Source of the DNA: Vicinamibacterales bacterium
Lineage (GTDB): Bacteria; Acidobacteriota; Vicinamibacteria; Vicinamibacterales; 2-12-FULL-66-21
DNA length: 64,000 bases
Direction: 5' to 3'
NCBI GenBank assembly: GCA_036496585.1
Contig: DASXLB010000033.1
Span: forward strand, 1,014 to 65,013
The position numbers and the translations under genes were made by a program. Of this stretch, positions 5,816 through 60,211 are shown piece by piece; positions within the stretch are counted from its first letter, which is position 1; the number at the start of each line of letters is the position of its first letter. The notes under the pieces are model-generated. The model saw only the letters and a program-made list of their open reading frames with translations, made no database searches and was not told the origin of the DNA.

Positions 5816-5866
5816 CGGCATTCCTCCTCCAAAAAGTGAGCACAACCATACACGTCTTTGACCGTA

Positions 5867-5893
5867 TGTCACATTTCTCCGGCCTGTCGCGTC
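5867..5893 (+). promoter_or_regulatory. ECF41-type promoter TGTCACA-N16-CGTC
   Basis: TGTCACA at 5867-5873, an exactly 16-nt spacer, and CGTC at 5890-5893. GGAG at 5909-5912 and ATG at 5920 follow at appropriate distances. This matches the published ECF41 target promoter signature as I recall it (Wecke et al. 2012). Confidence 0.7.
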
Positions 5894-5919
5894 TCACCAG
5901 GAGAGACTGGAGCACTGAG

Positions 5920-6558
5920 ATGATCAAGTGGACACTGCACAGCGCCATTGCCAGGTTCGAGCGGGCGTGGGGCTACGACGCCAGCTATATGCACGAGATG
6001 ATCGACGCGAGTCCGCGCGCCGCGTGGCTCTTCTCCCGCGTCGCCGCCCTCGGTCGATTCCGGCGTGACGTCCCGATCGACGCGTGGTGCGCGGCCGGCC
6101 TCACGGCGGTGCGCCACGAAGACTGCGGCCCGTGCACGCAGCTGGCCGTCGAGATGGCGGAGCGCGCCGGCGTCAGTTCCGCGGTGCTGCGGGCGGTGCT
6201 CACCGACAACGCCGCCGCGATGCCGCCGGACGTGGCGCTCGCCTGGAGCTTCACGCGCGCCGCGCTCGCGCACGATCCGCGCGCCGACGAATACCGCGAG
6301 GCGATCGTGCGGCTGTGGGGACGCCGGGCCCTCGTCAGCCTCGCCTTCGCGATGACCGCGGCGCGCCTCTACCCGACCGTCAAGTACGCGCTCGGTCACG
6401 GCCACGCGTGTATGCGCGTCGTGGTCGGCGGCGAGCCGCTCGTTTTTGATCAGAAAGGGGCTCAGAAGGGGGATCAGAGCGGGGATCAGACGGGGGATCA
6501 CCGAAGGGATCACGGCCGGGCCGCGGCACGGCGCGGATCGGCGGTCGGCACAGCGTGA
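5920..6558 (+). CDS. carboxymuconolactone decarboxylase (AhpD-like) family protein, the 'COE' partner of the ECF41 sigma
   Basis: CxxC-containing motif VRHEDCGPCTQLAVEMAERAG, typical of CMD/AhpD-like proteins. The position directly upstream of the ECF41 sigma also fits. The start at 5920 was chosen from the promoter and SD geometry; the ORF track start is 5836. The stop overlaps the sigma start (GTGA). Confidence 0.6.
   Translation: MIKWTLHSAIARFERAWGYDASYMHEMIDASPRAAWLFSRVAALGRFRRDVPIDAWCAAGLTAVRHEDCGPCTQLAVEMAERAGVSSAVLRAVLTDNAAAMPPDVALAWSFTRAALAHDPRADEYREAIVRLWGRRALVSLAFAMTAARLYPTVKYALGHGHACMRVVVGGEPLVFDQKGAQKGDQSGDQTGDHRRDHGRAAARRGSAVGTA
6448..6519 (+). repeat. six tandem 12-nt units (GATCAGNNNGGG-like), in frame within the CMD-like gene
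   Basis: GATCAGAAAGGG GCTCAGAAGGGG GATCAGAGCGGG GATCAGACGGGG GATCACCGAAGG GATCACGGCCGG. These encode DQKG AQKG DQSG DQTG DHRR DHGR and contain five GATC sites. Confidence 0.85.
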
Positions 6559-7505
6559 CCGGCGCCAGCGCGACGCCGGATCCCGCCGCGAGTTTCGAGC
6601 CGGACCGGCGCCGGCTGCGCGGCCTCGCCTACCGGATGCTGGGATCGATGGCCGACGCCGAGGACGCCGTGCAGGAGGCGTACCTGCGCTGGCATGCGGC
6701 CGCGCGTGACCGCGTGCTGGATCCGCGAGCGTTTCTCATGACCACCACCACCCGCATCTGTCTCGATATGCTGACGTCGGCGCGCGCGCGGCGCGAGGAG
6801 TACGTCGGCCCGTGGCTGCCCGAGCCGGTGCTCGACACGGCGGCGCTCGCGCCCGACCGCCGCACCGAATTGGCAGAGGACCTGTCGGTCGCGCTGCTGT
6901 TGACGCTCGACCGCCTGTCCCCGCTCGAGCGCGCGGCCTTCCTGCTGCACGACGTCTTCGATTTCTCGTTCGACGAGGTCGCCGGCGCGCTGGAGCGGAA
7001 CCGGGCGGCGTGCCGTCAGCTGGCCGCCCGCGCGCGTGCGCACGTGCGCGCCGTCCGGCCGCGCGGGGCGGTCGCGCCCCCGGTCCGGGCCGGCGAGGTC
7101 GACGCGAAACACGTGCAGCTCATGTCCACGTTCGTCGCTGCGACGCGGTCGGGAGATCTCGACAGTCTGATGCGGCTGCTCACGAGCGACGTGCGGGTCG
7201 TGACCGACGGCGGCGGCAAGGCCGCGGCGCCGCTCAACGTGATCGACGGGGCCGATCGCGCGGCGCGTTTCCTGATTGGCGCCGCGCGCAAGGGGTGGCG
7301 CGACGACTTCCGGATGCGGGTGTCGGCGATCAACGGGCTCCCCGGGGTGATCGTCGACGCGCCCGACGGACCGGTCCAGACGGCGGCGTTCGAGTTCGAC
7401 GGCGATGCCATCCGGGCGCTCTACGTGATCCGCAATCAGGACAAGCTGCGGCATCTGCCGGCGCCGGCGGCACCCGACGGCGGCGACGGCCGATCCGCCG
7501 GCTGA
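6555..7505 (+). CDS. ECF sigma factor, group ECF41 (SigJ-like, fused C-terminal SnoaL-like regulatory domain)
   Basis: 316 aa. Sigma-2/4 regions are LRGLAYRMLGSMADAEDAVQEAYLRW and LSPLERAAFLLHDVFDFSFDEVA. ECF41 signature motifs are WLPEP (GPWLPEPVL), DGGGK (TDGGGKAAAP) and NPDKL-like (RNQDKLRHL). No anti-sigma gene is adjacent. Confidence 0.85.
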   Translation: MTGASATPDPAASFEPDRRRLRGLAYRMLGSMADAEDAVQEAYLRWHAAARDRVLDPRAFLMTTTTRICLDMLTSARARREEYVGPWLPEPVLDTAALAPDRRTELAEDLSVALLLTLDRLSPLERAAFLLHDVFDFSFDEVAGALERNRAACRQLAARARAHVRAVRPRGAVAPPVRAGEVDAKHVQLMSTFVAATRSGDLDSLMRLLTSDVRVVTDGGGKAAAPLNVIDGADRAARFLIGAARKGWRDDFRMRVSAINGLPGVIVDAPDGPVQTAAFEFDGDAIRALYVIRNQDKLRHLPAPAAPDGGDGRSAG

Positions 7506-7529
7506 CGCTCCCGCCGCCTCACGCGTCCC

Positions 7530-7551
7530 CACGCCGTGCGTTCACGGCGTG
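7530..7551. terminator. 9-bp perfect hairpin between convergent genes (possible bidirectional terminator)
   Basis: CACGCCGTG cgtt CACGGCGTG. It overlaps the stop codon of the 2131-aa gene. There is no clear U-tract on either strand. Confidence 0.3.
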
Positions 7552-10500
7552 ATCTTCAGGGTTGCGGCGAGCAGCCCGAGCTGTCCCTTCACGTTCTGGA
7601 AATGCCCCGCCACGATGAGCGCCAGCTCCTTGACCGCCGGTGGCACGTCGACGACCACGCGGATGCGCGTCGACGCGCCAGCGTCGAGATCGCCCACCTT
7701 GAGCGGCAGCGAAGGCTGCAGGAGCCTTACGATGCCGAGCCCCTTCAGCGGGATCGGCAGCGCCAGATCGAGGAATACGTTCCTGGCGTTCCCGTCGCCG
7801 TCATTGACGAGGATCAGATCGATGTACTTGCGCGTGCCGGAGACGGTGCCTTCTCCGGCCACGCGCACGTCCACGTCAGGCCTGCCCACGATCACCGTGA
7901 CGGTGGAAGTGGCGCTGCCGACGTTGCCGGCTGCGTCCCGGAACCGGAAGGTGACCGTTGTCGTGCCGAGCGGAAGAACCGTGGACGCCGCGATCGGATT
8001 GCCGTTCACCAGCGGGGCGAGACGTGTCGGCGCGGCGTCGAGGTTGTCGGTCGCGCTGCCGCCGGCCAGGAAGGCGGCGAGCGCCGGAGAGTCGGCGCCA
8101 CTCGCGCCCGATGCGGTCGTGGCCGGAACGGTGATCGCCGGCGGCGCCGTGACGATCGGCGGCTGCGTATCGCTCCGCTTCGCGACCACGAACGGCGACA
8201 GCGAGAAGACCCGGCCGCACACACCGACGCCGGGCGTCGCACAGGCGATCGTCACCTCCCGCCATCCCGTCCCGTCGTCGTGCAGCATGACGGCATCGGC
8301 GGGGAACGTTCCGCCGATCAGGATGTCGATCGCGGTGCTCGGCGGCATCAGCGCCGTCGTCACCACGTCGTAGACCGGCGAGAGCGCGACGTAGCTGCCG
8401 AGCGGCCGTGACGCCTGGACGATGTCCGCCGTCGCGAGGCCCGCCTGCAGAATCGCGCTGATACTCAGCGCCACCGGCGTCGCATTGCCGGCGCTGTCGA
8501 CCAACGGCAGCAGCACGCCCGGCCGCGTGATGCTGGTGCCGAAGCTGTTGACGACCGTCACGCTCGCCACCTCGGATCCGATGTTGCCCGCCGCGTCGCG
8601 ATAGCGGAACGTGACGAGGGTGAGGCCGACCGGGAAGAGCGTCGTGTCGGTCGCGACGGTGCCGTCGGACAGCGTCGGATCCAGTCGCGCCGGCGCCGGG
8701 TCGGTATCGTCGGTTGCCGAACCGCCGAGCAGGAACACGTGGATCAGGTTCGAAGCGCCCGAGTCAGGCACGTCGCCGCGGGCACCACCCGCTTCGGTCA
8801 GGTGCACCGAGATGTTGGCTGGCAGCGTGACGACCGGGGGAATGGTGTCGGGCACGGTGGCGGCGACCGTATCGGTGACCGTGATCGCTTCCTGGAGATC
8901 GACGTCAGGGTTGGTAATCGTGTCGGTCACGTGGATGGTCTCGGCAATCAACACGTCGGGGTTGATCGTCACCGATGCCGAGTTGTTGCCGGGGCTCGGG
9001 TCCGCGTTCGCGCTCGCCGCCGTGAACACGGCCGTCAGCGGACCGAGCGCGGTCGGCGTCAGTGTGACGGTGAAGTCGCTCGTTCCGCGCACGTGGAAGT
9101 CGGTCACCGCGCAGGTCAGTACGTTCGCGGCGACCGAACACGCGCCCTGCGGGGAGGCCGAGTTGAACTGCAGCCCTGTCGGGACGCTGAGCTGCACCGC
9201 CGCTGTCGCCGCGGCGAACGGCCCGTGATTGGTCAGCTCGACCGCGAAATCGAGCGGCACGCCGGCGTGCGCGCCGGCGTCGGGATTGGCCAGCGCCGCG
9301 GTGAGGACGAGGTCGGTTATCGGCTGCACGATTGCCGTCGCGGTGTCCTGGGTCTGATTGAGCAGATCGCGGACCGTCAACGTCAGAGTGTGCATACCCG
9401 CGGAGAGCAGTATGTCGGCCGCGGCGGAGGTCGCGAGCGTGACCCCGTTTTCGGACCATGTGAACGTCAGCGGATCGTTGTCGGCGTCGGAGCCGATCCC
9501 TGCGACGTGGACGACGCCGCCGTCGGCGCTCGTCGCCAGAGCCGAGTACGGGCCACCGGCGATCGCCACCGGCGGTGTATTGACCTGGAAGCTTCCTTCC
9601 GCGTGATTGTTCGCCATCGCGGGATCGGGGACCGCCGACGAGACGTCGAACCGCGCCCTCGCGGTTGCGCCGGCCGTGAGGCCGCGGAGCGACACGACCA
9701 GCCGCGCGGCGCCTCCCGATGCGAGCGTTCCGGCGTCGCATGAGACCTGGGCTGGATGGAGCGTCGCCGGGAACTGGCAGCTGCCCAGACGATCGTCCAC
9801 GGCGGCGATTTCGAGCGCCGGATCCACCGAGATCGTCACGGTCGTGCCGGCCGCATCGTCTGGTCCGAGATTACGGATGATCAGTGTGGCGTCTGCGGTG
9901 CCGTTCAGCGGGACGCGCGTCGGCGCCGACGCGAACAGCTGTACGTCGGCCGACTGCGGCGCCTGGACGGCCCCCACATGGCGGACCTCATTCAGCAACC
10001 CAGTCACAAAGAAGAACCCGCCGGTGCCGTCGGGCAGCACGTCGATGACCCGCACCGCCGCCGCCGACAGGCCGAAGCCTTCTCCTTGCAGGTAGTAGCC
10101 TTGTCCGGCGTTCTGCCCCGCAACCGTCGCGGTGGGGTTGAAACCGGCGACCGTCGTGATGATCTCGTCGGCGTCGAGCCCGGTGACGACGTGGTCGGCG
10201 CCGGCGGCGATCCGTCTGATGCGCGGATCGGAGTTGTCGCCGACGAGGACATCGCCATTGGCCGCGACGGCGATGCTCTCGATCGTCTGGAACGTCGCGG
10301 CCGCTACCGGGCCGCCGTCGCCGCCATACGGCAGCGGAACGCAGGTCGTCAGCGCGCACGTGTTGATGACCGAGATCTGGCTGCTGTCGTCGAGCGTGCG
10401 GTTGGCGCCGGCCGAGATCCGCAGCAGCTGCGAGCTCTGCGCCGCCACGTAGACGTCGCCATTGGGGGCCACGGCGATTCTCGCCGCGGTGCCGAACCCG

Positions 10501-13500
10501 CTCTGCAACGCCGGCCCTGGAATGATTGTCGAGGTGCCGTTGCCGGCGACAGATGCGATCACGCCGGCGGCGTCGATCCGCCGGATCCGTCCCGTGAACT
10601 CCGACACCAGCAGGCCGCCCGCCGCATCGAATGCGAGGGCGACCGATCCGTTCAGGCTGGCGGCTGTCGCCGGTCCGCCGTCGCCGCGGGTCCGGCAGAA
10701 TCCGTCGCCTGCGATGTTGGTGATGATCCCGTCGGTGCCGATCCTGCGCACCTGACAGAACTCGGCGACGTACAGATTTCCTGTCGCGTCGAGTGCGATC
10801 TGGTGTGGATTGGTGAGATGCACGCTCGTCGCCGGCACGCCGGACGGCGACGGAATGCCGAACGAACCATCGGTATCGACCTGAAACGTGCCGATCACGT
10901 CGTCGCCGGCAACGTGCGCAATCGCTCCGGTCGTGAGATTCACCCGATTCAGGGCCCCGTACGTCGTGATGTAGAGCGACCCGCCTGCCGTGTCGATCGC
11001 GGTGCCGCCAAACAGCCCGAGATCCAGGCCTGTGCCCGGATCATGCGGACCGGCGATGGTCGTCGCCACGTTCCAGGCGGCCGCCTGCGTCATCAGCGCG
11101 AACGTTCCGTCGAGGGTCGCCGTCTGTCCGCAGAACGTCGCGCCGGTCGACGCGCCGCTGATGTCGTGCCACGCCGTGCCGTCGTGGAAGTAGAGACGCA
11201 GCGACGCGCGGTCGCCAAGACTCATGCCGGTCGTGTCGAGGCAGAGCGTGTAGGGTCCGGCGCCCGGAACCGTGGTGTGCAGCTCGTAGTAGTAAGGCGG
11301 ACTCGGCATCTGCAGGCCGTCGGGGACGGCTGGCGTGCCGATGTTCGTCCGGATGTTCATCGTGGTGACGCCGCCGCCTGCGGCGTTCTCGATCGTCAAC
11401 GTCGCCGGCGGAGCGAATTCGGGCAGCGGCTCGCCGAGGTCGAGGAGTACTGCCGGGTGCACGACGACCGTCCCGGTGCCGGCGGTGACGGCGCCCACGA
11501 CCGTGACATTCGCGGACGCCGACGCCGAGCCGCCGCGCCCGTCCGACACGGTCACCGTGACGGTCGACGCGCCGATCGGGAAAGGCACGGGAGCGCTGTA
11601 GAGGCCGCTCGATCCGGGCGTCCCCGAAACCGGTCCAAGCGGGCCCGTAAAGGTGACCGTCAGAGGATCGTTGTCGGGATCGTTGGCCTGGGCGAACAGG
11701 TACACCGTCGCGCCGGCGGGACTGTCGGCGCCGCGTTCGACCGGCGACAGATCCTGCAGCGTCGGCGGATGGTTGACACCTCGAACGCCGTCGATCTTCA
11801 TCAGGAGCAAATCGTCGCCACCGGCCGGCGCGGTTTGAAACGCACCGGCGGTCGCTCGATCGCTGTTGCTCGTGACCTCGACCGCGAGGACGGCGTCCGG
11901 CGTCAGCGAGACGGCGTGCGGATCGCGCGACGCGGTGCCGTCGAGCAGCGTGGAGAACAGAATGGAAGACAGGTCGGGAGCGAAGGTCGTCAGAAATGGC
12001 AGCGGCTGCGATGCGCTGGGCGTCGCGTCGAGGAGTCCTGAGACGCTCGGAAACGGAGCCGACGCCCACATGCCGGCGATCGACACCGACGCGTCGCTCG
12101 CCAGGGCGAGGCGCGGCGGCATCCCCCGGAAGGCCTGCCCGGTCGCGAGGGCCGTGTTCACGAGCAGCTGATCCGAACCCGACTGCGAGAGATCGAACCG
12201 CGCGAGGAAGTACGCGCCGCCGCTGCCGTCGAGCGGTCCCGACGGGCCTGGCAGGTCCGGGCTCGTCGTTTCGCCCACGACGGTGACCCGGCCTTGCGCG
12301 TCCACGGCGATGCCGTCGATTGCGTCGAAACCGCTGCCGCCGAAGTAGCTGCCAGAGGTGAGCGACGCGGGGCCCGAGTTGGTGGTGTCGATCGCCATCA
12401 GGAATGCGTCGTTGCAGCCGACGGCGGTGGCGTCCGTCGTGCAGGCCGCCGAGTAGGCCGAGGAAGTCGTCGGCAGCAGCCGCGAAGTGGTGCGTCCGCC
12501 CACGTATGCGTGCCCGTTGCCGTCTACCGCGAGCGCCATCGCCGCGGGATCGGCGTCGGGCAGATTCGTCAGGAACGTCCCGTACTGCAGGTGTCCGAGG
12601 GAGTCGTATTTCACGAGCACCGACTCGGACTGCCCGAGGCTGAAGAAATTGTCCTGCGTCACGCAGCGGCCGCTGCTCGGCGTCGTTCGGAAGCCGCCCG
12701 GGTAGGGATACGGCGAGGGCGTCTGCACGCGGCCGTTGAAGCACGCGCCGACGACGTAGATGTAGCCGCTGGCGTCGGCCGCCACCGACTGGACCGGACG
12801 AAATCCTTCGAGCGCCGTCAGCAGCACCGACGACGACTTGACGGGCGCGACGCTGTCGTCGAGGGTGCGCAGCGTCTTGACGAACGTGCCGTCGACGCTC
12901 TGAAAGACCGTGTGGACGAGTCCCGTCGGGGCGAGCGCCATCGCGTCGCAGAGCACCGGACTGCCGGTCACGCTCGCCGAATCGAGATAGACGACTGAGT
13001 ACAGGAGATTGCTGCCGGTGGCATCGAACTTCGACACGAAACAGTACTCGGGCACGCCGGTCAGGCGCCCCACGGCCGACGTGGTCGGAAAGTCGAGCCT
13101 GTCGGTCGTCGCGCCGAACACGTAGGCGTCGCCTGCGGCGTCGGCGGCAATCGACACGATGCGTTCGTTACCCGGGGATCCGAGATAGGTCGCGTACTCG
13201 ATGGTCGGATCGATGACGAGCGGCCGCGATCGGTCGTAGCCGCCGACGTGGAACCCGACCTGCCCGTCGCGCAGCACGAAGCCGCCGCGCACCGGCCGGC
13301 GGGCGCCGCCGGCATCCTGATAGATGAACGGGCGCTTCAGCCGCACGGTCGCTCCGTCGATGGCTATGACGAGCTCTCCGCTGCGAGCCACACTGACGGT
13401 GTCGGCGCCGCCGAATGACAGCGCGATGGCGGCCGGATCGCCGCCCGGCGCGACCTCGAAGTCGAACTGGATGCGGTCGCGGTCACCATGAAAGACCGCG

Positions 13501-13937
13501 GCGATACCGGGATACAGCCCGTCGTACCTGGCGCGCTCGAAGTGCGCCGCCGACAGCAGTTCGCCGGTGCCTCGCTGCGCGAAGTAGGTCGTCGCCGTCC
13601 TCGGCTGGTCGCCCCGGACGGTGGCCGAGCCGCTCGCCCCGGCGAAGGCGAGCGTCAGCGGATGCGAGACGCCGTTCAGCGCGAGCGTCGCCGAATGCTC
13701 GCCGAGAAACATCGTGTACCCCGGAGCTCTCGCCAACAGTCGGACCTGCGGGTCCGTCTCGCCGGCGTTGGCCTCGAACGCCACGGCCGGGCGCGGCCTC
13801 CCGATCCGCTCGTTGGCTCGCGACTGGACGCGGGATCCGGCGGCCAGCGGCGCGATGAACGTGACTGCGCCGGCCAGCGCGGTCACCGCCGCCCCGCGGA
13901 TACGCCTGCGACTCCGCTCCGATGATGCCGGCACCAT
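7542..13937 (-). CDS. giant secreted multi-domain surface protein (SBBP-type beta-propeller repeats, PKD/cadherin-like, NHL repeats, DUF11, 2x HYR, CARDB-like C-terminus)
   Basis: 2131-aa ORF with an N-terminal signal-like segment (RRRIRGAAVTALAGAVTFIAPLAAG). SBBP-like repeats include AYVFGATTDRLDFPTT, HAYVGGRTTSRLLPTTSSAY and RVTVVGETTSPDLPG. NHL-like repeats include LYVAEFCQVRRIGTDGIITNIAGDG. DUF11-like segments include LIIRNLGPDDAAGTTV and VELTNHGPFAAATAAV. There are two HYR-like modules (...VTFRYRDAAGNIGSEVASVTV and ...VTFRFRDAAGNVGSATSTVTV). Confidence 0.85.
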   Translation of the reverse strand: MVPASSERSRRRIRGAAVTALAGAVTFIAPLAAGSRVQSRANERIGRPRPAVAFEANAGETDPQVRLLARAPGYTMFLGEHSATLALNGVSHPLTLAFAGASGSATVRGDQPRTATTYFAQRGTGELLSAAHFERARYDGLYPGIAAVFHGDRDRIQFDFEVAPGGDPAAIALSFGGADTVSVARSGELVIAIDGATVRLKRPFIYQDAGGARRPVRGGFVLRDGQVGFHVGGYDRSRPLVIDPTIEYATYLGSPGNERIVSIAADAAGDAYVFGATTDRLDFPTTSAVGRLTGVPEYCFVSKFDATGSNLLYSVVYLDSASVTGSPVLCDAMALAPTGLVHTVFQSVDGTFVKTLRTLDDSVAPVKSSSVLLTALEGFRPVQSVAADASGYIYVVGACFNGRVQTPSPYPYPGGFRTTPSSGRCVTQDNFFSLGQSESVLVKYDSLGHLQYGTFLTNLPDADPAAMALAVDGNGHAYVGGRTTSRLLPTTSSAYSAACTTDATAVGCNDAFLMAIDTTNSGPASLTSGSYFGGSGFDAIDGIAVDAQGRVTVVGETTSPDLPGPSGPLDGSGGAYFLARFDLSQSGSDQLLVNTALATGQAFRGMPPRLALASDASVSIAGMWASAPFPSVSGLLDATPSASQPLPFLTTFAPDLSSILFSTLLDGTASRDPHAVSLTPDAVLAVEVTSNSDRATAGAFQTAPAGGDDLLLMKIDGVRGVNHPPTLQDLSPVERGADSPAGATVYLFAQANDPDNDPLTVTFTGPLGPVSGTPGSSGLYSAPVPFPIGASTVTVTVSDGRGGSASASANVTVVGAVTAGTGTVVVHPAVLLDLGEPLPEFAPPATLTIENAAGGGVTTMNIRTNIGTPAVPDGLQMPSPPYYYELHTTVPGAGPYTLCLDTTGMSLGDRASLRLYFHDGTAWHDISGASTGATFCGQTATLDGTFALMTQAAAWNVATTIAGPHDPGTGLDLGLFGGTAIDTAGGSLYITTYGALNRVNLTTGAIAHVAGDDVIGTFQVDTDGSFGIPSPSGVPATSVHLTNPHQIALDATGNLYVAEFCQVRRIGTDGIITNIAGDGFCRTRGDGGPATAASLNGSVALAFDAAGGLLVSEFTGRIRRIDAAGVIASVAGNGTSTIIPGPALQSGFGTAARIAVAPNGDVYVAAQSSQLLRISAGANRTLDDSSQISVINTCALTTCVPLPYGGDGGPVAAATFQTIESIAVAANGDVLVGDNSDPRIRRIAAGADHVVTGLDADEIITTVAGFNPTATVAGQNAGQGYYLQGEGFGLSAAAVRVIDVLPDGTGGFFFVTGLLNEVRHVGAVQAPQSADVQLFASAPTRVPLNGTADATLIIRNLGPDDAAGTTVTISVDPALEIAAVDDRLGSCQFPATLHPAQVSCDAGTLASGGAARLVVSLRGLTAGATARARFDVSSAVPDPAMANNHAEGSFQVNTPPVAIAGGPYSALATSADGGVVHVAGIGSDADNDPLTFTWSENGVTLATSAAADILLSAGMHTLTLTVRDLLNQTQDTATAIVQPITDLVLTAALANPDAGAHAGVPLDFAVELTNHGPFAAATAAVQLSVPTGLQFNSASPQGACSVAANVLTCAVTDFHVRGTSDFTVTLTPTALGPLTAVFTAASANADPSPGNNSASVTINPDVLIAETIHVTDTITNPDVDLQEAITVTDTVAATVPDTIPPVVTLPANISVHLTEAGGARGDVPDSGASNLIHVFLLGGSATDDTDPAPARLDPTLSDGTVATDTTLFPVGLTLVTFRYRDAAGNIGSEVASVTVVNSFGTSITRPGVLLPLVDSAGNATPVALSISAILQAGLATADIVQASRPLGSYVALSPVYDVVTTALMPPSTAIDILIGGTFPADAVMLHDDGTGWREVTIACATPGVGVCGRVFSLSPFVVAKRSDTQPPIVTAPPAITVPATTASGASGADSPALAAFLAGGSATDNLDAAPTRLAPLVNGNPIAASTVLPLGTTTVTFRFRDAAGNVGSATSTVTVIVGRPDVDVRVAGEGTVSGTRKYIDLILVNDGDGNARNVFLDLALPIPLKGLGIVRLLQPSLPLKVGDLDAGASTRIRVVVDVPPAVKELALIVAGHFQNVKGQLGLLAATLKITP

Positions 13938-13949
13938 GGATTCCTCGCG

Positions 13950-14567
13950 CTAGGAAAAGCTGAACGTGACGATCACGTTGATGATCTGGTTGGGCGTCAC
14001 CGCGACGCGCGCGATTGCGTGCGACGTGAACAGGGTGCTGAAGAGCGTCTGCGGTGTCTTGCCCGGCAGCAGGACGTCTATGCCCGTCCCGACGAGGCTG
14101 AAATACGAGACCGCCGCCGGATTGCTGACGACCGCGTATCCGCTGAGCTGCAGCGTACCGGTCGGGGTGCCTGTCGCCGCATCGAGCGGCAGCGTCAACT
14201 GCAGGTTCGGATAGGCATCCTTGCCCGATCCGCGTTCCGGCGTGTTGATCGCGCAGCCGTTCACGCCGAAGTCGTTGACGCAGGGAGACTGTCCGCCGAC
14301 GGTATCGACGAGATAAATGTACCAGTTGGAAACGGTCGCCTTGGCGAGGATCGCAGCGAGCAGCTCCTGCCCATGGGCCGCGAGGCTGTTCTCGAATTCC
14401 TGGCGCGACGCGAGCGAGCCGTCACCGTTGTGGACCTCGATCACCCAGTGGCCATGAACCTTGATGTCCTCGCTGGGGCCCTTCGCCGGCGAAGTTTGCG
14501 CGAGCACCGGCAGGCTGCAGAGAAGCACCGCCGGCACCGCGCCGATCAGCGCGCGCGTGATGGTCAC
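13950..14567 (-). CDS. secreted protein of unknown family (paralog 1)
   Basis: 205 aa with signal peptide ALIGAVPAVLLCSLPVLAQ. It shares long identical blocks with the next gene (DIKVHGHWVIE, GTLQLSG, VTFSFS C-terminus). It ends 12 nt upstream of the giant gene. Confidence 0.75.
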   Translation of the reverse strand: MTITRALIGAVPAVLLCSLPVLAQTSPAKGPSEDIKVHGHWVIEVHNGDGSLASRQEFENSLAAHGQELLAAILAKATVSNWYIYLVDTVGGQSPCVNDFGVNGCAINTPERGSGKDAYPNLQLTLPLDAATGTPTGTLQLSGYAVVSNPAAVSYFSLVGTGIDVLLPGKTPQTLFSTLFTSHAIARVAVTPNQIINVIVTFSFS

Positions 14568-14595
14568 GAGATACTCCTGACGCCAATCGTCCTGC

Positions 14596-15198
14596 TCAGG
14601 ACGAGAAGCTGAAGGTCACGACGACGTTGATGGTTTGATTCAGTTTCACGGTCACCTGGGGCAGCGTGTGCGAGGTGAAGGACGCAAAGTACGTGGTGTT
14701 GTCGGGGCGGCGCAGCGTGGCGCGCGTCGAGACAAAATTTATGGAGGTCGCGGCAGGATTGGTGACGAGCACGTGCCCGGTCAGCTGCAGGGTCCCGGCC
14801 GGCTCCTGCGATGCCGCGTCGATCGGGACGTAGGTCTGAAGGCTCAAGCTGGATTGACTGTTCTCCGGGTTCCCGGAGTTTGGTTCTTCGATGAAGCACG
14901 GCACGACCGCGGCGACACTGTCCACGCACGGTGCGGGTGAACCGGAGATCTGGATGTCCCAGAACTGCACGGTCGCCTTCCCCAGAATCAGCGACAGGAT
15001 GCCTGGGCCGCGGCTGGTGAGCGCATTGTTGAACTCGTGCCGCGATTCGAGCGACCCGTCCGGATTGCGGATCTCGATCACCCAGTGGCCGTGAACCTTG
15101 ATGTCCTGGTGGGCGCCGCCGCTGTTCTGGGCCCACACGGGGCTGGCGGTCATGAGTACGGCCGCGACCACGGCCTGCCACGGTGTGACTTTCCACAT
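14596..15198 (-). CDS. secreted protein of unknown family (paralog 2)
   Basis: ATG at 15198 is preceded by GGAGGG. Signal peptide MWKVTPWQAVVAAVLMTASPVWAQ. It has the same blocks as paralog 1 (DIKVHGHWVIE, GTLQLTG, VTFSFSS) and a conserved Cys pair. The longer ORF-track start (15324) would run into the divergent sigma gene. Confidence 0.75.
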   Translation of the reverse strand: MWKVTPWQAVVAAVLMTASPVWAQNSGGAHQDIKVHGHWVIEIRNPDGSLESRHEFNNALTSRGPGILSLILGKATVQFWDIQISGSPAPCVDSVAAVVPCFIEEPNSGNPENSQSSLSLQTYVPIDAASQEPAGTLQLTGHVLVTNPAATSINFVSTRATLRRPDNTTYFASFTSHTLPQVTVKLNQTINVVVTFSFSS

Positions 15199-15271
15199 CA
15201 CTGCGTCCCTCCGTCTTCCGGGTGAAGCTCGCGTAGTTACGCGCGTTTGCCGGAAAAGCGGCTCAGCGGGT

Positions 15272-15886
15272 ATGCTCGACCCCGTACCAGGCATGCCCGA
15301 GGGCCAGGACGGAACTGACGTCACGCGGCTGCTCCAGGAATGGCGGGACGGCCGTCAGGATGCCCTGGACCGTCTAATGCCGCTCGTCTACAACGAGCTC
15401 CACCTGATCGCCTCGCGGCACATGGCCCGCGAATGGCGGGGAGGGGCGCTGCAGACCACCGCGCTGGTCAGCGAGGCCTTCCTCAAACTGGTGGGCCAGC
15501 GCGATGTCGACTGGCAGAACCGGGCGCATTTCTTTGCCATCGCCGCCACGGTGATGCGGCGGGTCCTCGTCGACAACGCCCGCCGCGAACTGCGTCCCAA
15601 GCACGGCGGCGGCGCCGTCGCGGTGTCGGTCGACGATGCGCCCCCCCTGGCCCAGGCGGTGAGCCTGGACGCTGTCGACGCACTGGCGCTGGATACGGCG
15701 CTGAAGAAGCTGGAAGTGTTGGACCCCCCCCAGGCTCGCATCGTCGAGCTGCGTTTCTTCGGCGGCCTCACGGTCGAGGAGACGGCGGAAGTGGTCGGCG
15801 CTTCGCCCGCGACCGTGAAACGCGAGTGGGCGCTCGCCAAAGGCTGGCTGTACCGCGAGCTGACCGGCGCGTCGGGAGCGCGCTGA
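15272..15886 (+). CDS. ECF sigma factor, Sigma70_ECF / TIGR02999-like (ECF43-like, kinase-associated type)
   Basis: DVTRLLQEWRDGRQDALDRLMPLVYNELHLIA, VDWQNRAHFFAIAATVMRRVLVD, and IVELRFFGGLTVEETAEVVGASPATVKREW. The start is ATG at 15272 or 15293. Confidence 0.85.
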   Translation: MLDPVPGMPEGQDGTDVTRLLQEWRDGRQDALDRLMPLVYNELHLIASRHMAREWRGGALQTTALVSEAFLKLVGQRDVDWQNRAHFFAIAATVMRRVLVDNARRELRPKHGGGAVAVSVDDAPPLAQAVSLDAVDALALDTALKKLEVLDPPQARIVELRFFGGLTVEETAEVVGASPATVKREWALAKGWLYRELTGASGAR

Positions 15887-15932
15887 GCCGGATCGGTGCG
15901 ATTCCGCGCGTAAGGGACGAAGGCGCCGCGCG

Positions 15933-18431
15933 ATGCAGAACGTCACCCCGGAACTCTGGCTGCGCGTCAAGGACGTGGCCGCCACGGCCCTCGAACTGAG
16001 CGGCGCCGACCGCGGTGCCTTCGTCGAGCAGGCGTGCGCCGGCGACGAAGCGCTCCGCGCAGAAGTCGTGTCGCTGCTCGCCTCGACCGACGCCGCCGCC
16101 CCGTACTTCGAAACGGTCGCGATCGGCGGCGTCGCAAGTCTCTACGACGCCGGCAGCCGGATCGGCGCCTACCGCATCGTCCGCGAGCTGGGCAGCGGCG
16201 GCATGGGAACGGTGTACCTCGCCGAACGCGACGACGGGGAGTTCACGCAGCGGGCGGCGATCAAGATCGTGCGCGGCGGATTTGCGAACAGCTTTCTGCT
16301 GGAGCGATTCCGGGAGGAACGTCGGATCCTCGCTTCGCTCGATCATCCCAATATCGCCCACCTGCTCGACGGCGGCACTACCGAACGCGGCCTGCCGTAC
16401 GTGGTGATGGAGTTCGTCGAAGGGCAACCGATCGACGAGTACTGCGTCACCCGGCAGCTGCCTCTCAGGGAGCGGCTCGCGCTCTTTCAGCACGTGTGCG
16501 ACGCCGTGCAGTACGCCCACCACCATCTGGTCGTCCACCGCGACATCAAGGCCGCCAACGTCCTGGTGTCGAGCGGCGGCGTGCCGAAGCTGCTCGATTT
16601 CGGCATCGCGAAACTGCTCGACGCCGACCCCGCCCTGCCGCACTACACGGTGATTCGCGTGATGACGCCGGAGAGCGCAAGTCCCGAGCAGTTGAGCGGC
16701 CGTCCGGTGACGGTGGCGGCGGACGTCTACGCGCTCGGCGTGCTGCTCTATCGCCTGATGGCCGGCGTGGGGCCGTACGGCGACTCCACGAAGTCGGACG
16801 TACAGCTGATCCGCTCGGTGTGCGAGGTCATGCCGGACCGCCCGAGCGCGCGGTCGTCGCAGACGCCCCGCATCCCCTCCGACGTCGACATGATCGTGCT
16901 CAAGGCGCTGCGGAAGGAGCCGGAGCGCCGTTACGCCTCGCCGTTGCACTTCGCCGAGGACATCCAGCGGTTTCTCGATGGCCGGCCGGTGCTGGCGTCT
17001 CCCGATTCGGTCAGCTACCGCGTCCGCAAGTTCGTCGGGCGTCACCGGGTGGCGGTGGTGGCGGCCTGCGCCGCGGCGATCGCCATCGGGACCGGCGTCA
17101 CCGCGGCGATCTGGGAAGCGCGCGTCGCGGAGCGCCAGCGCGTCAAGGCCGAACAGGAGTTCAACGCGGTGCGCGGCTTCGCGCAGGCGATGCTCGGCGA
17201 GATGCACGACGCGGTCGTGAAGCTGCCCGGCTCGACGGCCGCCGATGAGATTCTGCTGCGGCATGCGACGACATACCTCGACGCGCTGTGGCCGCAGGCG
17301 CAGAGCGACGAAGGGCTACGCCGCGAAGTCGCGCGCGGTTACGGCATGCTGGCCGGGGTGCAAGGCACCTACGGTCTGGCCAACATCGGTGACCAGGCCG
17401 GCGCGCGCGCGAGCCTCCTGAAGGTCATCACCCTGCTCGATCCGCTCGTGGCCGGCCCGCGAGCGACGCTCGCCGACCGCCTATATCTGGCCAAATCGTT
17501 CGCCGTGCTGGTACAGACCGATACGACGCCAGCGATGGCAACCGCACATCTGGCGCGCGCCCGCGCCATCGTCGAGGCGCTGACGCCGGCGGAGCGGGTG
17601 GAGCCCGAGGCGATCCAGATTCGCGAATCGGTGTGGTCCGTGATCGCGAACGCGCAGATCGAGGCCCATGACTACGCCGCGGCGCTCGAATCGCAGCAGC
17701 GCGGTCTCGAAGCGGCCACCGAACACCTGCGCGCCAGCCCCGACAACCTCGCCGCGAGCAGAAACCTGTCGCTCTCATACAAGCAGGTCGGGGCGCTCCT
17801 GGAGGTGCTCGACCGCGCCCCTGAGGCCGTCGCGCTCTACGAAAAAGCGGTGACGCTCGACGAGGATCGCGTGCGCAAGGACCCGGCGACGCCGCTGTGG
17901 CGGCTCGATCTGTCGTTTGCCAAGGGTTCGATCGGCTCTCTGGTGGGAAACGCCGGCGATCTGGTCCGCTCCCAGTCGCTGTACGAGGAAGCGGTGGCTC
18001 TGCGCGAAGACGTGGTCAAGCAGGATCCGGCCAACGACTTCGCGCTCACCTCGCTGGCGCGCGGCTACGATCGTCTCGCCCGCCTGCACGGCCAGCGCGC
18101 CCAGATCGCCGAAGCCTTCGACTACGCCCATCGACGGCTGGACATCTTCCGGCGGCGCCTGCAGGCGCACCCCGAACGCGAGCGGGTCTGGCGGGACTAC
18201 ACGGCGGCGCTGGCGAGCAGCGCGGAGGCGTGCCAGAACGCCCTGGCGGTGCCGGCGATCGGCCGCGATCTCCGCCGCACGTTCGTCCCGCAGGCGACCG
18301 CCATGCTCGATGCGATCGACGCAACCCAGCAGCGCTGGATCCGCGAGCACCACGCCGGTCCGCTCCCGCCGGCCGCCGACGCGGTCCAGCAGCAGCGCGC
18401 AGACCTGCTCCATCTGCTCGACGGGCGCTGA
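15933..18431 (+). CDS. membrane serine/threonine protein kinase with TPR-like C-terminal half
   Basis: Hanks kinase motifs: GSGGMGTVY, AAIKIV, HRDIKAANVLV, DFGIAK and SPEQ. One TM helix (VAVVAACAAAIAIGTGVTAAIW). This is followed by about 430 aa of helical, repeat-like sequence. Confidence 0.9.
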   Translation: MQNVTPELWLRVKDVAATALELSGADRGAFVEQACAGDEALRAEVVSLLASTDAAAPYFETVAIGGVASLYDAGSRIGAYRIVRELGSGGMGTVYLAERDDGEFTQRAAIKIVRGGFANSFLLERFREERRILASLDHPNIAHLLDGGTTERGLPYVVMEFVEGQPIDEYCVTRQLPLRERLALFQHVCDAVQYAHHHLVVHRDIKAANVLVSSGGVPKLLDFGIAKLLDADPALPHYTVIRVMTPESASPEQLSGRPVTVAADVYALGVLLYRLMAGVGPYGDSTKSDVQLIRSVCEVMPDRPSARSSQTPRIPSDVDMIVLKALRKEPERRYASPLHFAEDIQRFLDGRPVLASPDSVSYRVRKFVGRHRVAVVAACAAAIAIGTGVTAAIWEARVAERQRVKAEQEFNAVRGFAQAMLGEMHDAVVKLPGSTAADEILLRHATTYLDALWPQAQSDEGLRREVARGYGMLAGVQGTYGLANIGDQAGARASLLKVITLLDPLVAGPRATLADRLYLAKSFAVLVQTDTTPAMATAHLARARAIVEALTPAERVEPEAIQIRESVWSVIANAQIEAHDYAAALESQQRGLEAATEHLRASPDNLAASRNLSLSYKQVGALLEVLDRAPEAVALYEKAVTLDEDRVRKDPATPLWRLDLSFAKGSIGSLVGNAGDLVRSQSLYEEAVALREDVVKQDPANDFALTSLARGYDRLARLHGQRAQIAEAFDYAHRRLDIFRRRLQAHPERERVWRDYTAALASSAEACQNALAVPAIGRDLRRTFVPQATAMLDAIDATQQRWIREHHAGPLPPAADAVQQQRADLLHLLDGR

Positions 18432-18521
18432 CCGGCCGCCCGCCGTCACCGGCCGCTCGAGGTGCTGCATTCGCCTCCGGTGCCGCGCGCCGCGCAACTC
18501 TCGCTGTACAATTGACGCGCC

Positions 18522-20021
18522 TTGAAACCCGTCGTCGCGGTGGTCGCAGCCGCGCTGTGTCTCATCTCCGCCGCGCTTCCGGCTCAGCAGTCCGCCGCCC
18601 TTCCCTACACTGTCGTCACGCACGAGGGTAAGCGGCCGCTCGCCGTACGCACGATCAGCGGCCAGGAGATGTTCGCGCTCGACGACCTTGCGCGGCTGTT
18701 CAACCTGAACGTGCGGGAAGACCCGGCAGCCGCAAGCCTGACGATCGCCGCCGGCCCGCAGACGATCCTGCTCTCGACGCAGCAGCCGCTGGCCTCGATC
18801 GGCGGGCGGATGACCTCGCTGCCGTCGGCGCCCGTGCGCGACGGCAAGATCTGGTACGTCCCCGTCGACTTCGTCGGGCGGGTGCTCGCGACGGTCTCGG
18901 CGGTGAAGATGGACCTGCGCAAGCCGTCGCGGCTGCTGCTGGTCGGCGACGTACGGATGCCGCGGGTGGCGGCGCGGGTCGAGCCGCTCGGCTCCGAGAC
19001 GCGCGTCACGATCGATGTCGCGCCGGCGACGCCGCACACTGTCGCGCAGGAGGGCAGCCGGCTCGTCGTCCGCTTCGACGCTGACGCCCTCGACGCGCCG
19101 GATCTGCACGCCAGCACCACCACCGACATGGTGCAGGGGGTGCGGCTTGGCGACACGGCGCAGACGATTGCGATCGATCTCGGGCCCCGCTTCGCCAGTT
19201 TCCGCGCCGCCGATCAACCGGGCGCCAGCGGCGCAGGCAGAATCGCCATCGATCTGCTGCCGCAGGTCGAGGCGGCTCCGACCGTCACGCCCGGTCAGGC
19301 TCCGCCGCCGCCGGAGACGCCGCCGCTCCTCGACCTGCCGCCCCCGGGGGGCCTGCGGACGATCGTCATCGACCCCGGCCATGGCGGCGACGACCTCGGC
19401 GCCCGCGGCGTCCAGGGCACGCTCGAGAAGACCGTGACCCTGGCGATCGCGCGACGAGTCAAGGCGGCGCTCGAAGCGCGTCTCGGCACGCGCGTGCTGC
19501 TCACGCGCGACAGCGATCAAGCGGTCGGCCTCGACCAGCGCGCCGCGGTCGCCAACAACAACAAGGCGGATCTTTTCGTCAGCCTGCACGCCAACGCCTC
19601 GCTGCGGCCAGGCCAGATCGGGGCGGAGGTGTTCTACCTGGCGATCGAAGGCTACGGGGAAGCGGCGCAGCGCGCTGCACAGGCGCCCCGCGAGGCGCTG
19701 CCGCTGCTCGGCGGGGGCACGCGCGATATCGAGATCATTCCCTGGGAGCTTGCGCAGGCGCGCTACATCGACCAGGCGGCTGCGTTCGCGCGGGCGATCG
19801 AGGGTGCCCTGCAGGAGCGCGTCAAGATGACTCCGCAGGCGCTGCAACAGGGGCCGTTCCGGGTGCTGGTCGGCGCCAACATGCCGGCGGTGCTGATCGA
19901 GCTCGGGTTCCTGAGCAACTCGCAGGAGGAGCAGCAACTGCTCGCCGACGATCACCAGGCGGCGCTGGCGCAGGCCGTCGTCGAGGGAATCGTACGCTAT
20001 CGCGCGGGTGCCAGCCGGTGA
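18522..20021 (+). CDS. N-acetylmuramoyl-L-alanine amidase (AmiC-like, AMIN + amidase_3 domains)
   Basis: Signal peptide, then IVIDPGHGGDDLGARG, ADLFVSLHANA and LIELGFLSNSQEE. Confidence 0.85.
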   Translation: MKPVVAVVAAALCLISAALPAQQSAALPYTVVTHEGKRPLAVRTISGQEMFALDDLARLFNLNVREDPAAASLTIAAGPQTILLSTQQPLASIGGRMTSLPSAPVRDGKIWYVPVDFVGRVLATVSAVKMDLRKPSRLLLVGDVRMPRVAARVEPLGSETRVTIDVAPATPHTVAQEGSRLVVRFDADALDAPDLHASTTTDMVQGVRLGDTAQTIAIDLGPRFASFRAADQPGASGAGRIAIDLLPQVEAAPTVTPGQAPPPPETPPLLDLPPPGGLRTIVIDPGHGGDDLGARGVQGTLEKTVTLAIARRVKAALEARLGTRVLLTRDSDQAVGLDQRAAVANNNKADLFVSLHANASLRPGQIGAEVFYLAIEGYGEAAQRAAQAPREALPLLGGGTRDIEIIPWELAQARYIDQAAAFARAIEGALQERVKMTPQALQQGPFRVLVGANMPAVLIELGFLSNSQEEQQLLADDHQAALAQAVVEGIVRYRAGASR

Positions 20022-20623
20022 ACCGGCCCCTGGCGCTGCGCGCGGCGCTCGTCGTCTTCGCTGGGGTGGCGGCGTGGCTGTTGTTCTTCGGTCTGCCGCG
20101 CTGGTACGCGGCGCGCCGGACCGCAACCGTCGCCGCCGTGACTGCCGGCGCGGCGCCAGCCCCCGCCGCCGCCGTCCGCAAGATCACCGCGACGCTCTAC
20201 TACGTGAGCGACGACGGCCTGATGCTCGGTCCGACCCAGCGCGAGGTGCCGTTCGCCGCCAACGTCGCCGACCAGGCGCGCGCCATCGTCGAAGCCCAGC
20301 TCGCTCCGTCGCCGCCGCTCGTGTCGGCGGTTCCACCCGAGACGAGGCTGCGCGACGTGTTCGTCACCGAGCGGGGAGACGCGTTCGTCGATCTGAGCGG
20401 CGAGGTCGCCTCGAAGCACAGCGGCGGCTCGCTGGACGAGCTGTTGACCGTCTACACGATCATCGACGTGCTGACCGTGAACCTGCCGGCGATCAAGCGC
20501 GTGCAGATCCTGATCGACGGACGCGAGGTCGACACGCTGGCTGGCCACGTCGACCTCCGCCATCCGCTCGCGAAAAGCCTCGAACGCGTCCTGCAGCCTG
20601 ACGCATCCGACAAGCCGCGCTGA
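20018..20623 (+). CDS. GerMN domain-containing protein
   Basis: 4-nt overlap with the amidase gene. N-terminal TM helix. The pattern LYYVSDDGLMLGPTQREVP...VFVTERGDAFVDLSGE...LTVYTIIDVLTVNLPAIKRVQILIDG is typical of GerM-like domains. Confidence 0.65.
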   Translation: MNRPLALRAALVVFAGVAAWLLFFGLPRWYAARRTATVAAVTAGAAPAPAAAVRKITATLYYVSDDGLMLGPTQREVPFAANVADQARAIVEAQLAPSPPLVSAVPPETRLRDVFVTERGDAFVDLSGEVASKHSGGSLDELLTVYTIIDVLTVNLPAIKRVQILIDGREVDTLAGHVDLRHPLAKSLERVLQPDASDKPR

Positions 20624-28526: not shown

Positions 28527-28603
<77 letters not shown>

Positions 28604-33396: not shown

Positions 33397-33481
33397 TCCG
33401 GTGATTATGACGCCAGGGGCGAGCTGCGAGGTGCGACCGGCCGTTAACCTTTCGACGCTCGACTACGTAGTAACCGGAGTG

Positions 33482-59791: not shown

Positions 59792-60200
59792 TAAGAGTGA
59801 GGCGGCCGGAAAACCGGCGCCCCGGCCGCGCGGGTCCGACACACCCGGCGTCCCGCCGCCGCGATCCGGCCTGCACAACGAGTTGAAACGCGGCAGCGCC
59901 GAGCTCCTCATTCTGGCGCTGCTCGAAGAGCGGCGGCGGCACGGCTACGAGATCGGCCAGCTGATCGCGCGCCGCTCCGACGGCGCCATCAACTTCCACA
60001 TCACCTCGCTCTATCCCACCCTCTACCGCCTCGAGGACCGCGGCCTCATCGACGGCCGCTGGGTCGAGCGCGCCGGCCAGCGCCGCCGCCGCTACTACAG
60101 GCTGACACCGGCCGGGCGCCGGACGCTGGCGAGCCAGCGCAACGTGTGGGAGAGCTTCTTCGCGGCCCTCAATCGGGTCGCCCGGATTACCGAAACCTGA
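59784..60200 (+). CDS. PadR-family transcriptional regulator
   Basis: ELLILALLEERRRHGYEIGQLIARRSDGAINFHITSLYPTLYRLEDRGLIDGRWVE...RRRYYRLTPAGRRTL. The start is ATG at 59784 or GTG at 59772. Confidence 0.88.
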   Translation: MASKSEAAGKPAPRPRGSDTPGVPPPRSGLHNELKRGSAELLILALLEERRRHGYEIGQLIARRSDGAINFHITSLYPTLYRLEDRGLIDGRWVERAGQRRRRYYRLTPAGRRTLASQRNVWESFFAALNRVARITET

Positions 60201-60211
60201 TCGCGCCCGCC

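Follow-up and report, generated by a model that had tools for sequence, protein, structure and literature searches.

Sigma factors of the extracytoplasmic function (ECF) group ECF43 have no acidic DAED/DxxD patch in region 2.2 and carry instead the consensus QTTA, the second Thr of which is phosphorylated by a neighboring Hanks-type kinase, providing the negative charge for binding of the beta' subunit of RNA polymerase (PMC8999054; PMC13147305); the conservation of this acceptor Thr is 88% (PMC13147305). In the literature examined here, regulons are reported for only two such pairs, both from Proteobacteria. These are EcfP/PknT of Vibrio parahaemolyticus, in which phosphorylation of a Thr activates the sigma factor (Iyer et al. 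2020, summarized in PMC8999054), and EcfK/PknS of Xanthomonas citri, which induces a type VI secretion system (T6SS) against amoeba predation (PMC13147305). The same mode of activation was demonstrated for a third pair, from Hyphomonas, and our literature search found no description of a regulon for any acidobacterial ECF43-kinase pair. Here we analyze a locus in a 64-kb stretch of DNA (hereafter, the window) from contig DASXLB010000033.1 of a Vicinamibacterales bacterium (Acidobacteriota), where the genes for an ECF43-type sigma factor and a membrane Hanks-type Ser/Thr kinase are divergent from genes for two small secreted paralogs, denoted small A and small B, and a giant protein. We consider it probable that these genes comprise an ECF43-family signaling module together with its target operon. 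The regulator belongs to a known class; new are the cargo, the candidate promoter, the implied feedback on the kinase gene and the interchange with ToxR-like regulators.

The sigma factor of the window matches PF07638 (Sigma70_ECF; E-value 2.9e-52, profile positions 2-184 of 185) and scores 206.9 bits with TIGR02999, for which the cut-off is 126.15. Its region 2.2 reads LQTTALV, within GGALQTTALVSEAF, an exact match to the ECF43 consensus QTTA, which is encoded at 15452-15463 with the predicted phospho-acceptor Thr, T56 of the 197-aa form or T63 of the 204-aa form, at 15458-15460 (all coordinates of the locus are positions in the whole window). The profile matches, QTTA in place of the acidic motif, the adjacent Hanks kinase and the lack of a co-encoded anti-sigma factor (scanning of genes between 4374 and 25825 revealed no domain of the anti-sigma type) together support membership of this sigma factor in ECF43. 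Both this assignment and the lack of an anti-sigma gene had been proposed in a preliminary description of the locus, which also suggested a comparison of the acceptor Thr with EcfP; the residue is present in both proteins. As far as EcfP/PknT is described in the summary cited above, the two systems have in common a PF07638-type sigma factor whose region 2.2 lacks acidic DAED but has an acceptor Thr (EcfP reads STTA here), and an adjacent transmembrane Hanks kinase without an anti-sigma factor. They differ in phylum and, by the same account, in the regulon, which is polymyxin resistance for EcfP and, as a candidate, two small secreted proteins and a giant propeller/Ig protein in the window. EcfK/PknS likewise combines an ECF43 sigma factor, in which the acceptor Thr of region 2.2 is conserved, and a membrane Hanks kinase with adjacent structural genes, those switched on in the case of EcfK and putative targets in the window. 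However, the motif of EcfK is QATE, and its linker contains another essential phosphosite, T106 (PMC13147305), whereas the linker of the window sigma factor reads as an acidic VDDA stretch with no evident second phosphosite, and the targets in the window are not a T6SS. The acidic motif is missing from all 18 sigma factors associated with loci of this kind, namely, the one in the window and 17 encoded beside small-family genes in other genomes, in which region 2.2 reads QTTA, QATA, QSTA, QSAA, SATA and similar variants.

The kinase gene starts 46 nt 3' of the sigma gene. Its product matches Pkinase (residues 80-335; E-value 3.6e-41, profile positions 1-253 of 263), and the catalytic motifs GSGGMGTV, AAIK, HRDIKAAN, DFG and SPE are intact in the translation. 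The catalytic domain is preceded by a helical extension (residues 1-75) and followed by a single hydrophobic, transmembrane (TM) segment (approximately 368-392) and a C-terminal half of about 437 aa that is predicted to be extracytoplasmic and TPR-like, an outer domain that sets this kinase apart from PknT as summarized. The membrane kinase had been described correctly at the outset, and the TPR-like character of its C-terminal half is supported at the profile level but not in Pfam, where no TPR model passes and the only match is a weak one to BTAD (E-value 0.0089). When the C-terminal halves of 13 orthologs were combined in a profile, it aligned with the TPR region of the winged-helix (wHTH)-TM-TPR proteins discussed below with 97% probability (E-value 2e-11), and the orthologous kinases show faint TPR_1/TPR_2 matches. 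This alignment supports the designation TPR-like, not a specific orthology with the sensors of the wHTH proteins; specific homology between the two sensors was rejected, the similarity being only at the generic TPR level. The C-terminal domain of the window kinase is common to the kinases of the loci that contain small-family genes (E-values from 1e-14 to 1e-29).

On the other strand, small A, small B and the giant gene form a tight three-gene operon, divergent from the sigma and kinase genes. The open reading frames (ORFs) lie at the coordinates and in the orientation given in the preliminary description, with gaps of 28 nt between small A and small B and 12 nt between small B and the giant gene, and each downstream gene has a Shine-Dalgarno sequence of its own (AGGAG 8 nt upstream of the small B GTG; GAGGA preceding the start of the giant gene). 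The reported type and divergent position of the sigma gene were also borne out, but its reported distance of 73 bp from the operon is probably too short: orthologous sigma factors begin with MG(D/G)PGE..., which aligns with the second Met (15293) of the window ORF, so that the gene probably starts there and the intergenic region is probably 94 bp long.

The intergenic DNA of the window can be aligned with that of L085, one of the metagenomic contigs that encode the closest small-protein homologs (L083 to L086), in one block only, GCTGAGCCGCTTTTC.GG.AAACGCGCGTA, which is also present in L084. The block contains an ECF-like motif of the form TGAGCC-N16/17-CGCGTA, with the -35-like TGAGCC at 15265-15260, the -10-like CGCGTA at 15243-15238 and the ATG of small A 39 nt downstream. 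A second copy extends from the stop codon of the sigma gene to a point 20 nt short of the kinase start codon, and the two copies also have flanks in common (CGCTGAGCCG ... GCGCGTAA). There are two exact matches to TGAGCC-N17-19-CGTA in the window, both at the predicted places, against 0.26 expected, and only 4 of 100 shuffled controls reach two. We also examined loci of sigma factors that are 77-85% identical to that of the window (L168 to L173); two of the source names listed for such sigma factors belong to Vicinamibacterales. The junction copy recurs at the equivalent position between the sigma and kinase genes in L085, L168, L169, L170, L171 and L172, and the operon-type block is found upstream of small genes in L084, L085/L086 and L168. 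A copy with a T-tract, TGAGCCG[CT]TTTTCC...AAAC..CGCGTA, precedes a small-family gene in L168, the gene for a 1862-aa Peptidase_S74 protein in L170 and a 117-aa ORF in L173, for a total of 14 sites at equivalent positions in 9 loci; the background of the relaxed motif is one per 6.3 kb per strand. Two blocks at a fixed spacing, a variable spacer, a CGT-containing -10 element and a T-tract after the -35 element fit an ECF-type promoter recognized by this sigma subfamily, and both copies are candidate sigma-dependent promoters, one for the operon and the other for the kinase gene. The search for a motif common to the regions upstream of 15198 and 15272, as originally suggested, thus succeeded on the operon side and failed on the sigma side: no plus-strand copy faces the sigma gene, and the second copy lies upstream of the kinase gene instead. 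This placement, before the kinase gene rather than the sigma gene, is a further difference from EcfP/PknT as summarized.

These observations bear on the alternative that the adjacency is inherited synteny, with the operon controlled by a housekeeping sigma factor or another regulator and the motif serving as an operator for a different DNA-binding protein. The -35-like TGAGCC differs from GGAAC, the classical ECF element; in the operon copy, the -10-like element forms one arm of a perfect inverted repeat, CGCGTAgtTACGCG, at 15230-15243, which could be a dimer binding site; and close paralogs of the sigma factor are found in unrelated contexts. We nevertheless regard this alternative as distinctly unlikely. 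The palindrome is missing from L084, L085, L168 and L170 and so is probably incidental; the two-block motif with its fixed spacing, variable spacer and CGT-containing -10 element resembles ECF promoters and travels with this sigma subfamily in the 9 loci, including the sigma-kinase junction; the loci with wHTH regulators carry a different, wHTH-type repeat element; and a scan of 7300-18700, weak for this phylum, detected no sigma-70-like promoter. A universal motif upstream of all small-family genes was sought by dyad enumeration in 72 non-redundant upstream regions and rejected, with only clade-specific blocks rising above the shuffled controls. A motif common to all 16 ECF-kinase loci, or to the operon and the junction within each of them, was rejected as well, given that only the window clade scored; the Terracidiphilus-type loci have a different common footprint. 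The target-type copy of L173 (11457-11484, minus strand), upstream of the 117-aa ORF, which has no Pfam match, and another one in L172 (7912-7939, minus strand), where no gene is called, possibly represent further regulon members or unannotated small genes.

Under the model that we favor, the sigma factor would be made inactive, with QTTA replacing the acidic patch that contacts the beta' subunit of RNA polymerase. The membrane kinase would receive an extracytoplasmic signal via its TPR-like domain and phosphorylate the second Thr of QTTA, allowing the sigma factor to bind the core polymerase. The resulting holoenzyme would transcribe from TGAGCC-N16/17-CGCGTA promoters, one driving the operon of small A, small B and the giant gene, and the other one, overlapping the sigma stop codon, driving the kinase gene and so creating positive feedback. 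The operon products would then be exported, with the small proteins serving the giant protein as partners, for instance as subunits that co-assemble with it, form fibres or bind, and not as regulators.

The arrangement is conserved in the closest relatives, as the preliminary description had anticipated. In L085/L086, a kinase gene and a Sigma70_ECF gene are divergent from genes for small proteins of 218 and 209 aa that are followed by a large gene, and in L083/L084, the N-terminal part of a sigma factor is followed by two small genes and a gene for a 2138-aa DUF7948/Big_9/HYR/NHL/DUF11 protein. The identity to the window proteins is 81% for the sigma factor, 66% for the cytoplasmic part of the kinase (L085), 47% over the full length of the giant protein (L083), and only 36% and 44% for the small proteins. 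Hence the exported proteins evolve much faster than the regulators, and this uneven divergence within an orthologous module suggests fast or diversifying evolution of the exported components.

A broader set of 80 loci was fetched from species-representative genomes with the small-protein profile, mostly from Acidobacteriota, including Granulicella rosea DSM 18704, along with a few from Chloroflexota and one from Gemmatimonadaceae; with the window, the set includes 81 loci, 74 of which have sufficient sequence for the analysis of the divergent neighbor. A gene encoding a protein of 1,000-3,200 aa is located directly downstream of the small gene(s) in about 70 of the 81 loci. The N-terminal propeller of these giants is SBBP/DUF7948 in only about 27 loci, and NHL, FG-GAP, RCC1, PD40 or lactonase-like in the others, combined with Ig-like repeats. 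A divergent sigma gene of the window type is present in 16 of the 74 loci, and in 15 of these the kinase gene is visible, the remaining one (L070) ending at a contig edge. Thus, the co-occurrence that the preliminary description proposed to examine, of the small family with ECF-kinase pairs and giant genes, is indeed observed. In 36 of the 74 loci, the same position is taken by a gene for a Trans_reg_C (winged-helix)-TM-TPR protein; neither type of regulator is found in 16 loci, and 6 have other arrangements, including L002 and L008, with both a sigma and a kinase gene nearby. The Trans_reg_C proteins are of the ToxR/CadC type and have the same topology as the kinase, with a TPR-like sensor that is homologous to that of the kinase only at the generic TPR level; no such gene is present in the window, and the output is direct DNA binding as opposed to kinase-to-sigma signaling. 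In L081 (2966-6502, minus strand), a third kind of divergent neighbor encodes a 1178-aa protein with a weak N-terminal HTH_23 match, TPR repeats and a PD40 propeller.

The loci with wHTH regulators have a cis element of their own. Pho-box-like direct repeats with 11-bp spacing, GTACAGA-N4-GTACAGA-N4-TTTCAGG, occur upstream of the small gene in 11 of 35 such loci (L009, L016, L018, L022, L026, L046, L053, L054, L059, L067 and L069), about 120-165 nt from the small gene and about 16 nt before TCTATT, a layout of the PhoB/OmpR type. The element was found neither in the 16 ECF loci nor in 29 other loci, and its background is one per 119 kb per strand. Thus, the same cassette is preceded by a different cis element depending on the class of regulator, each matching its regulator, which adds weight to the notion that the operon is controlled by its divergent neighbor. 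Conserved synteny, regulator replacement and the common conserved motif together support the divergent operon as the regulon of the sigma factor, as originally conjectured.

The same census could be read differently, with the small proteins being periplasmic signaling partners that bind the TPR-like sensor, be it that of a kinase or a wHTH protein, and feed back on it, in the manner of ToxS with ToxR or of a co-transcribed anti-sigma factor. Indeed, a divergent membrane regulator with an extracytoplasmic TPR region is present in 52 of the 74 loci regardless of its output domain, TPR domains are known to bind proteins, and the small genes lead a putative sigma-dependent operon. However, the small genes are linked more strongly to the giant gene (about 70 of 81) than to any regulator, a linkage that holds in most of the loci that lack both regulators (e.g., L005, L007, L013, L014 and L028), and none of the best 80 kinase-anchored loci contains a small gene. 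Furthermore, the divergence of the small proteins far exceeds that of the sigma factor and the kinase, which is more typical of exposed proteins, and the fold predicted for them is similar to models of phage proteins, some of which are annotated as tail fibre, but not to ToxS or any experimentally determined structure. We therefore consider a signaling role unlikely; most likely, the small proteins are partners of the giant protein rather than regulators.

Small A and small B are 47% identical, have N-termini that resemble Sec-type signal peptides and match no Pfam or NCBIfam model, in agreement with their initial description as secreted paralogs of no known family. Small A carries a VHGHW motif. 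The family hidden Markov model recovers both proteins in the window (E-values 3.8e-56 for small A and 2.6e-54 for small B). A word-indexed search with the two-paralog profile yielded 332 proteins, and a profile of 84 members matched 3,526 representative clusters (50% identity) at E <= 0.001, including 1,973 at E <= 1e-30. The matches listed are 187-345 aa long; the family members have signal peptides, an N-terminal GIKVHGHWVIEVRNPDGSL..R.EFEN motif, two Cys and a C-terminal ...VTVT.SFS, and are encoded in one to four tandem copies per locus. Similarity to Pfam families was limited to DUF2914 in 28 (best E-value 0.0017) and MG2 in 9 of the 84 members, in neither case reaching the gathering threshold, and the small proteins of the window had no match at E <= 0.01. 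AlphaFold2 with the family alignment gave a confident model of small A (pLDDT 87, pTM 0.78), all-beta with long strands and one helix. A Foldseek comparison of this model with the PDB produced no match (best TM-score below 0.25), and none was found by a profile search of the PDB sequences. The small proteins are an undescribed family of at least 3,500 clusters without a Pfam or NCBIfam model or a PDB match. Although their G-x3-HxH-x3-E motif could suggest a cupin, this reading was rejected: the model places all of the motif residues on a single uninterrupted strand, and there was no match to a cupin structure.

Among the predicted viral structures in BFVD, the small A model has 29 matches at E <= 0.001, with E-values from 2.8e-8 to 1e-4 and TM-scores of 0.4-0.73, both sides of the comparison being predicted models. 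The matches are uncharacterized Caudovirales and lipothrixvirus (archaeal filamentous virus) proteins, two of which are annotated as tail fibre, and we treat this resemblance as a lead, not an assignment. Taken literally, it would suggest that the small and giant genes are a tail-fibre-like remnant of a prophage or tailocin and not a cellular envelope module, which would be compatible with the presence of an integrase gene 6 kb away in one related locus (L081) and with the Peptidase_S74 tail-spike chaperone-domain protein that faces a paralogous sigma factor. Such an origin is nonetheless very improbable: there are no other phage genes in or around the locus, the GC content is uniform (approximately 69% throughout), the small proteins are chromosomally encoded with Sec-type signal peptides, a PHROGs search with the small family detected no sequence similarity, and in dozens of species the cassette is found next to cellular regulators at stable locations in the chromosome.

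The giant protein has an Arg-rich, signal-like N-terminus, the feature that suggests its export. It contains DUF7948 (residues 54-245), SBBP repeats, a Big_9/cadherin-like domain (722-813) and NHL/TEN_NHL, as well as two DUF11 stretches (best 1542-1658) and HYR (1930-2015). A docking domain, C- or N-terminal, common to all downstream giants was rejected, with the termini falling into several unrelated clusters. The surface and adhesion roles initially proposed for the operon products are guesses.

The sensor domain of the kinase matches more than 600 metagenome stretches, so that pairs of this kind are clearly abundant in Acidobacteriota. The sigma gene is directly upstream of the kinase gene in 50 of the best 80 of these loci; the sensor domain as a marker of the cassette was rejected, no small gene being present in any of them. 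A divergent gene for a protein of at least 850 aa lies within about 350 bp of the sigma gene in 12 of the 28 kinase-anchored loci with enough upstream sequence, and 7 of the 10 such large genes that were scanned encode NHL, SBBP, FG-GAP or PD40 propellers, mostly with Ig-like, PKD or Calx-beta domains; for example, a sigma factor 85% identical to that of the window faces a 1457-aa RCC1/Big_2/PKD protein. More broadly, it thus seems to be the rule that ECF43-kinase pairs face a giant propeller/Ig exoprotein, with the small proteins as an optional but frequent leading element. Paralogous sigma-kinase modules, with sigma factors 82-83% identical to that of the window, face the 1862-aa protein of L170 (2310-7898, minus strand), in which Peptidase_S74 is C-terminal, and, in L169/L171 (7452-7976, minus strand), an ORF of 171-173 aa of no assigned kind that is followed by a luciferase-like gene.

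Several observations weigh against the proposed module with its target operon. The case is comparative throughout, with transcription and phosphorylation both predicted, and the role of the small proteins is suggested only by gene linkage and by resemblance between predicted models. In 6 of the 18 associated sigma factors, region 2.2 reads QSAA, without a Thr at the acceptor position. No motif copy lies upstream of the sigma gene, leaving its own transcription unexplained. The motif was not found in more distant acidobacterial ECF-kinase loci either, which would be expected if promoter specificity diverged but also limits the generality of the claim. The small-family gene is absent from all of the best 80 loci fetched via the kinase sensor domain, and sigma factors 77-85% identical to that of the window have other neighbors or no divergent gene (L169, L171, L172 and L173). 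Hence this sigma subfamily is not dedicated to the present cargo, and cross-talk between modules is possible.

Table. Features of the sigma-kinase locus and of its surroundings in the 64-kb window
Feature	Position	Strand	Description
small A	15198->14596	minus	200 aa, ATG start; first gene of the operon
small B	14567->13950	minus	205 aa, GTG start
giant secreted protein (putative)	13937->7542	minus	2131 aa
ECF43-type sigma factor	15293..15886	plus	197 aa with the start at ATG 15293; 204 aa with ATG 15272
Hanks-type Ser/Thr kinase	15933..18431	plus	832 aa
candidate operon promoter motif	15238..15265	minus	TGAGCCGCTTTTCCGGCAAACGCGCGTA
second motif copy, candidate kinase promoter	15884..15912	plus	TGAGCCGGATCGGTGCGATTCCGCGCGTA
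ORF preceding the second sigma gene	5836-6558	plus	240 aa; no Pfam match
second sigma-70-family gene	6555-7505	plus	316 aa; regions 2 and 4, C-terminal extension of ~150 aa
Amidase_3 protein and overlapping GerM-domain (Germane) protein	18522-20623	plus	Amidase_3 protein of 499 aa
tRNA gene	28527-28600	plus	sole Rfam match at the gathering threshold in the window
MacB_PCD/FtsX permease	33389-35932	plus	~850-930 aa
MacB_PCD/FtsX permease	39295-41865	minus	~850-930 aa
MacB_PCD/FtsX permease	60146-62929	plus	~850-930 aa

The genes flanking the locus are ordinary (a methyltransferase, a cupin protein, a second sigma-like gene, an amidase, a GerM-domain protein, RNase PH and Ham1). The second sigma gene and the giant gene are convergent, with 37 nt between their 3' ends. 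The second sigma gene overlaps by 4 nt the preceding ORF, which belongs with it and not with the ECF43-type sigma gene. The amidase and GerM-domain genes follow the kinase gene on the same strand after 90 nt. Long MacB_PCD/FtsX permeases, three of which are encoded in the window, are typical of Acidobacteriota, which would agree with the Vicinamibacterales names of the closest sigma homologs.

A more far-reaching reading, which we consider a minor though real possibility, is that the locus represents a widespread, undescribed acidobacterial circuit. An extracytoplasmic TPR sensor, wired interchangeably to a Hanks kinase with an ECF43 sigma factor or to a ToxR-like DNA-binding domain, would monitor and control a dedicated cargo cassette consisting of a fast-evolving, tail-fibre-like small protein of a new fold family and a giant propeller/Ig exoprotein. 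In such a circuit, the small protein might serve in the assembly or anchoring of an extracellular fibre or be its receptor-binding subunit, with the sensor perhaps responding to whether the cassette itself has been exported or engaged. At the level of the favored module and its target operon, the locus offers a testable candidate promoter, TGAGCC-N16/17-CGCGTA, a candidate regulon and a predicted feedback loop via the kinase gene. In addition, it reveals a large family of secreted proteins, without a Pfam or NCBIfam model or a solved structure, whose genes are linked to those for the giant propeller/Ig proteins that these genomes commonly encode. Finally, the association of one cassette with two signaling architectures amounts to a natural experiment in regulator replacement.

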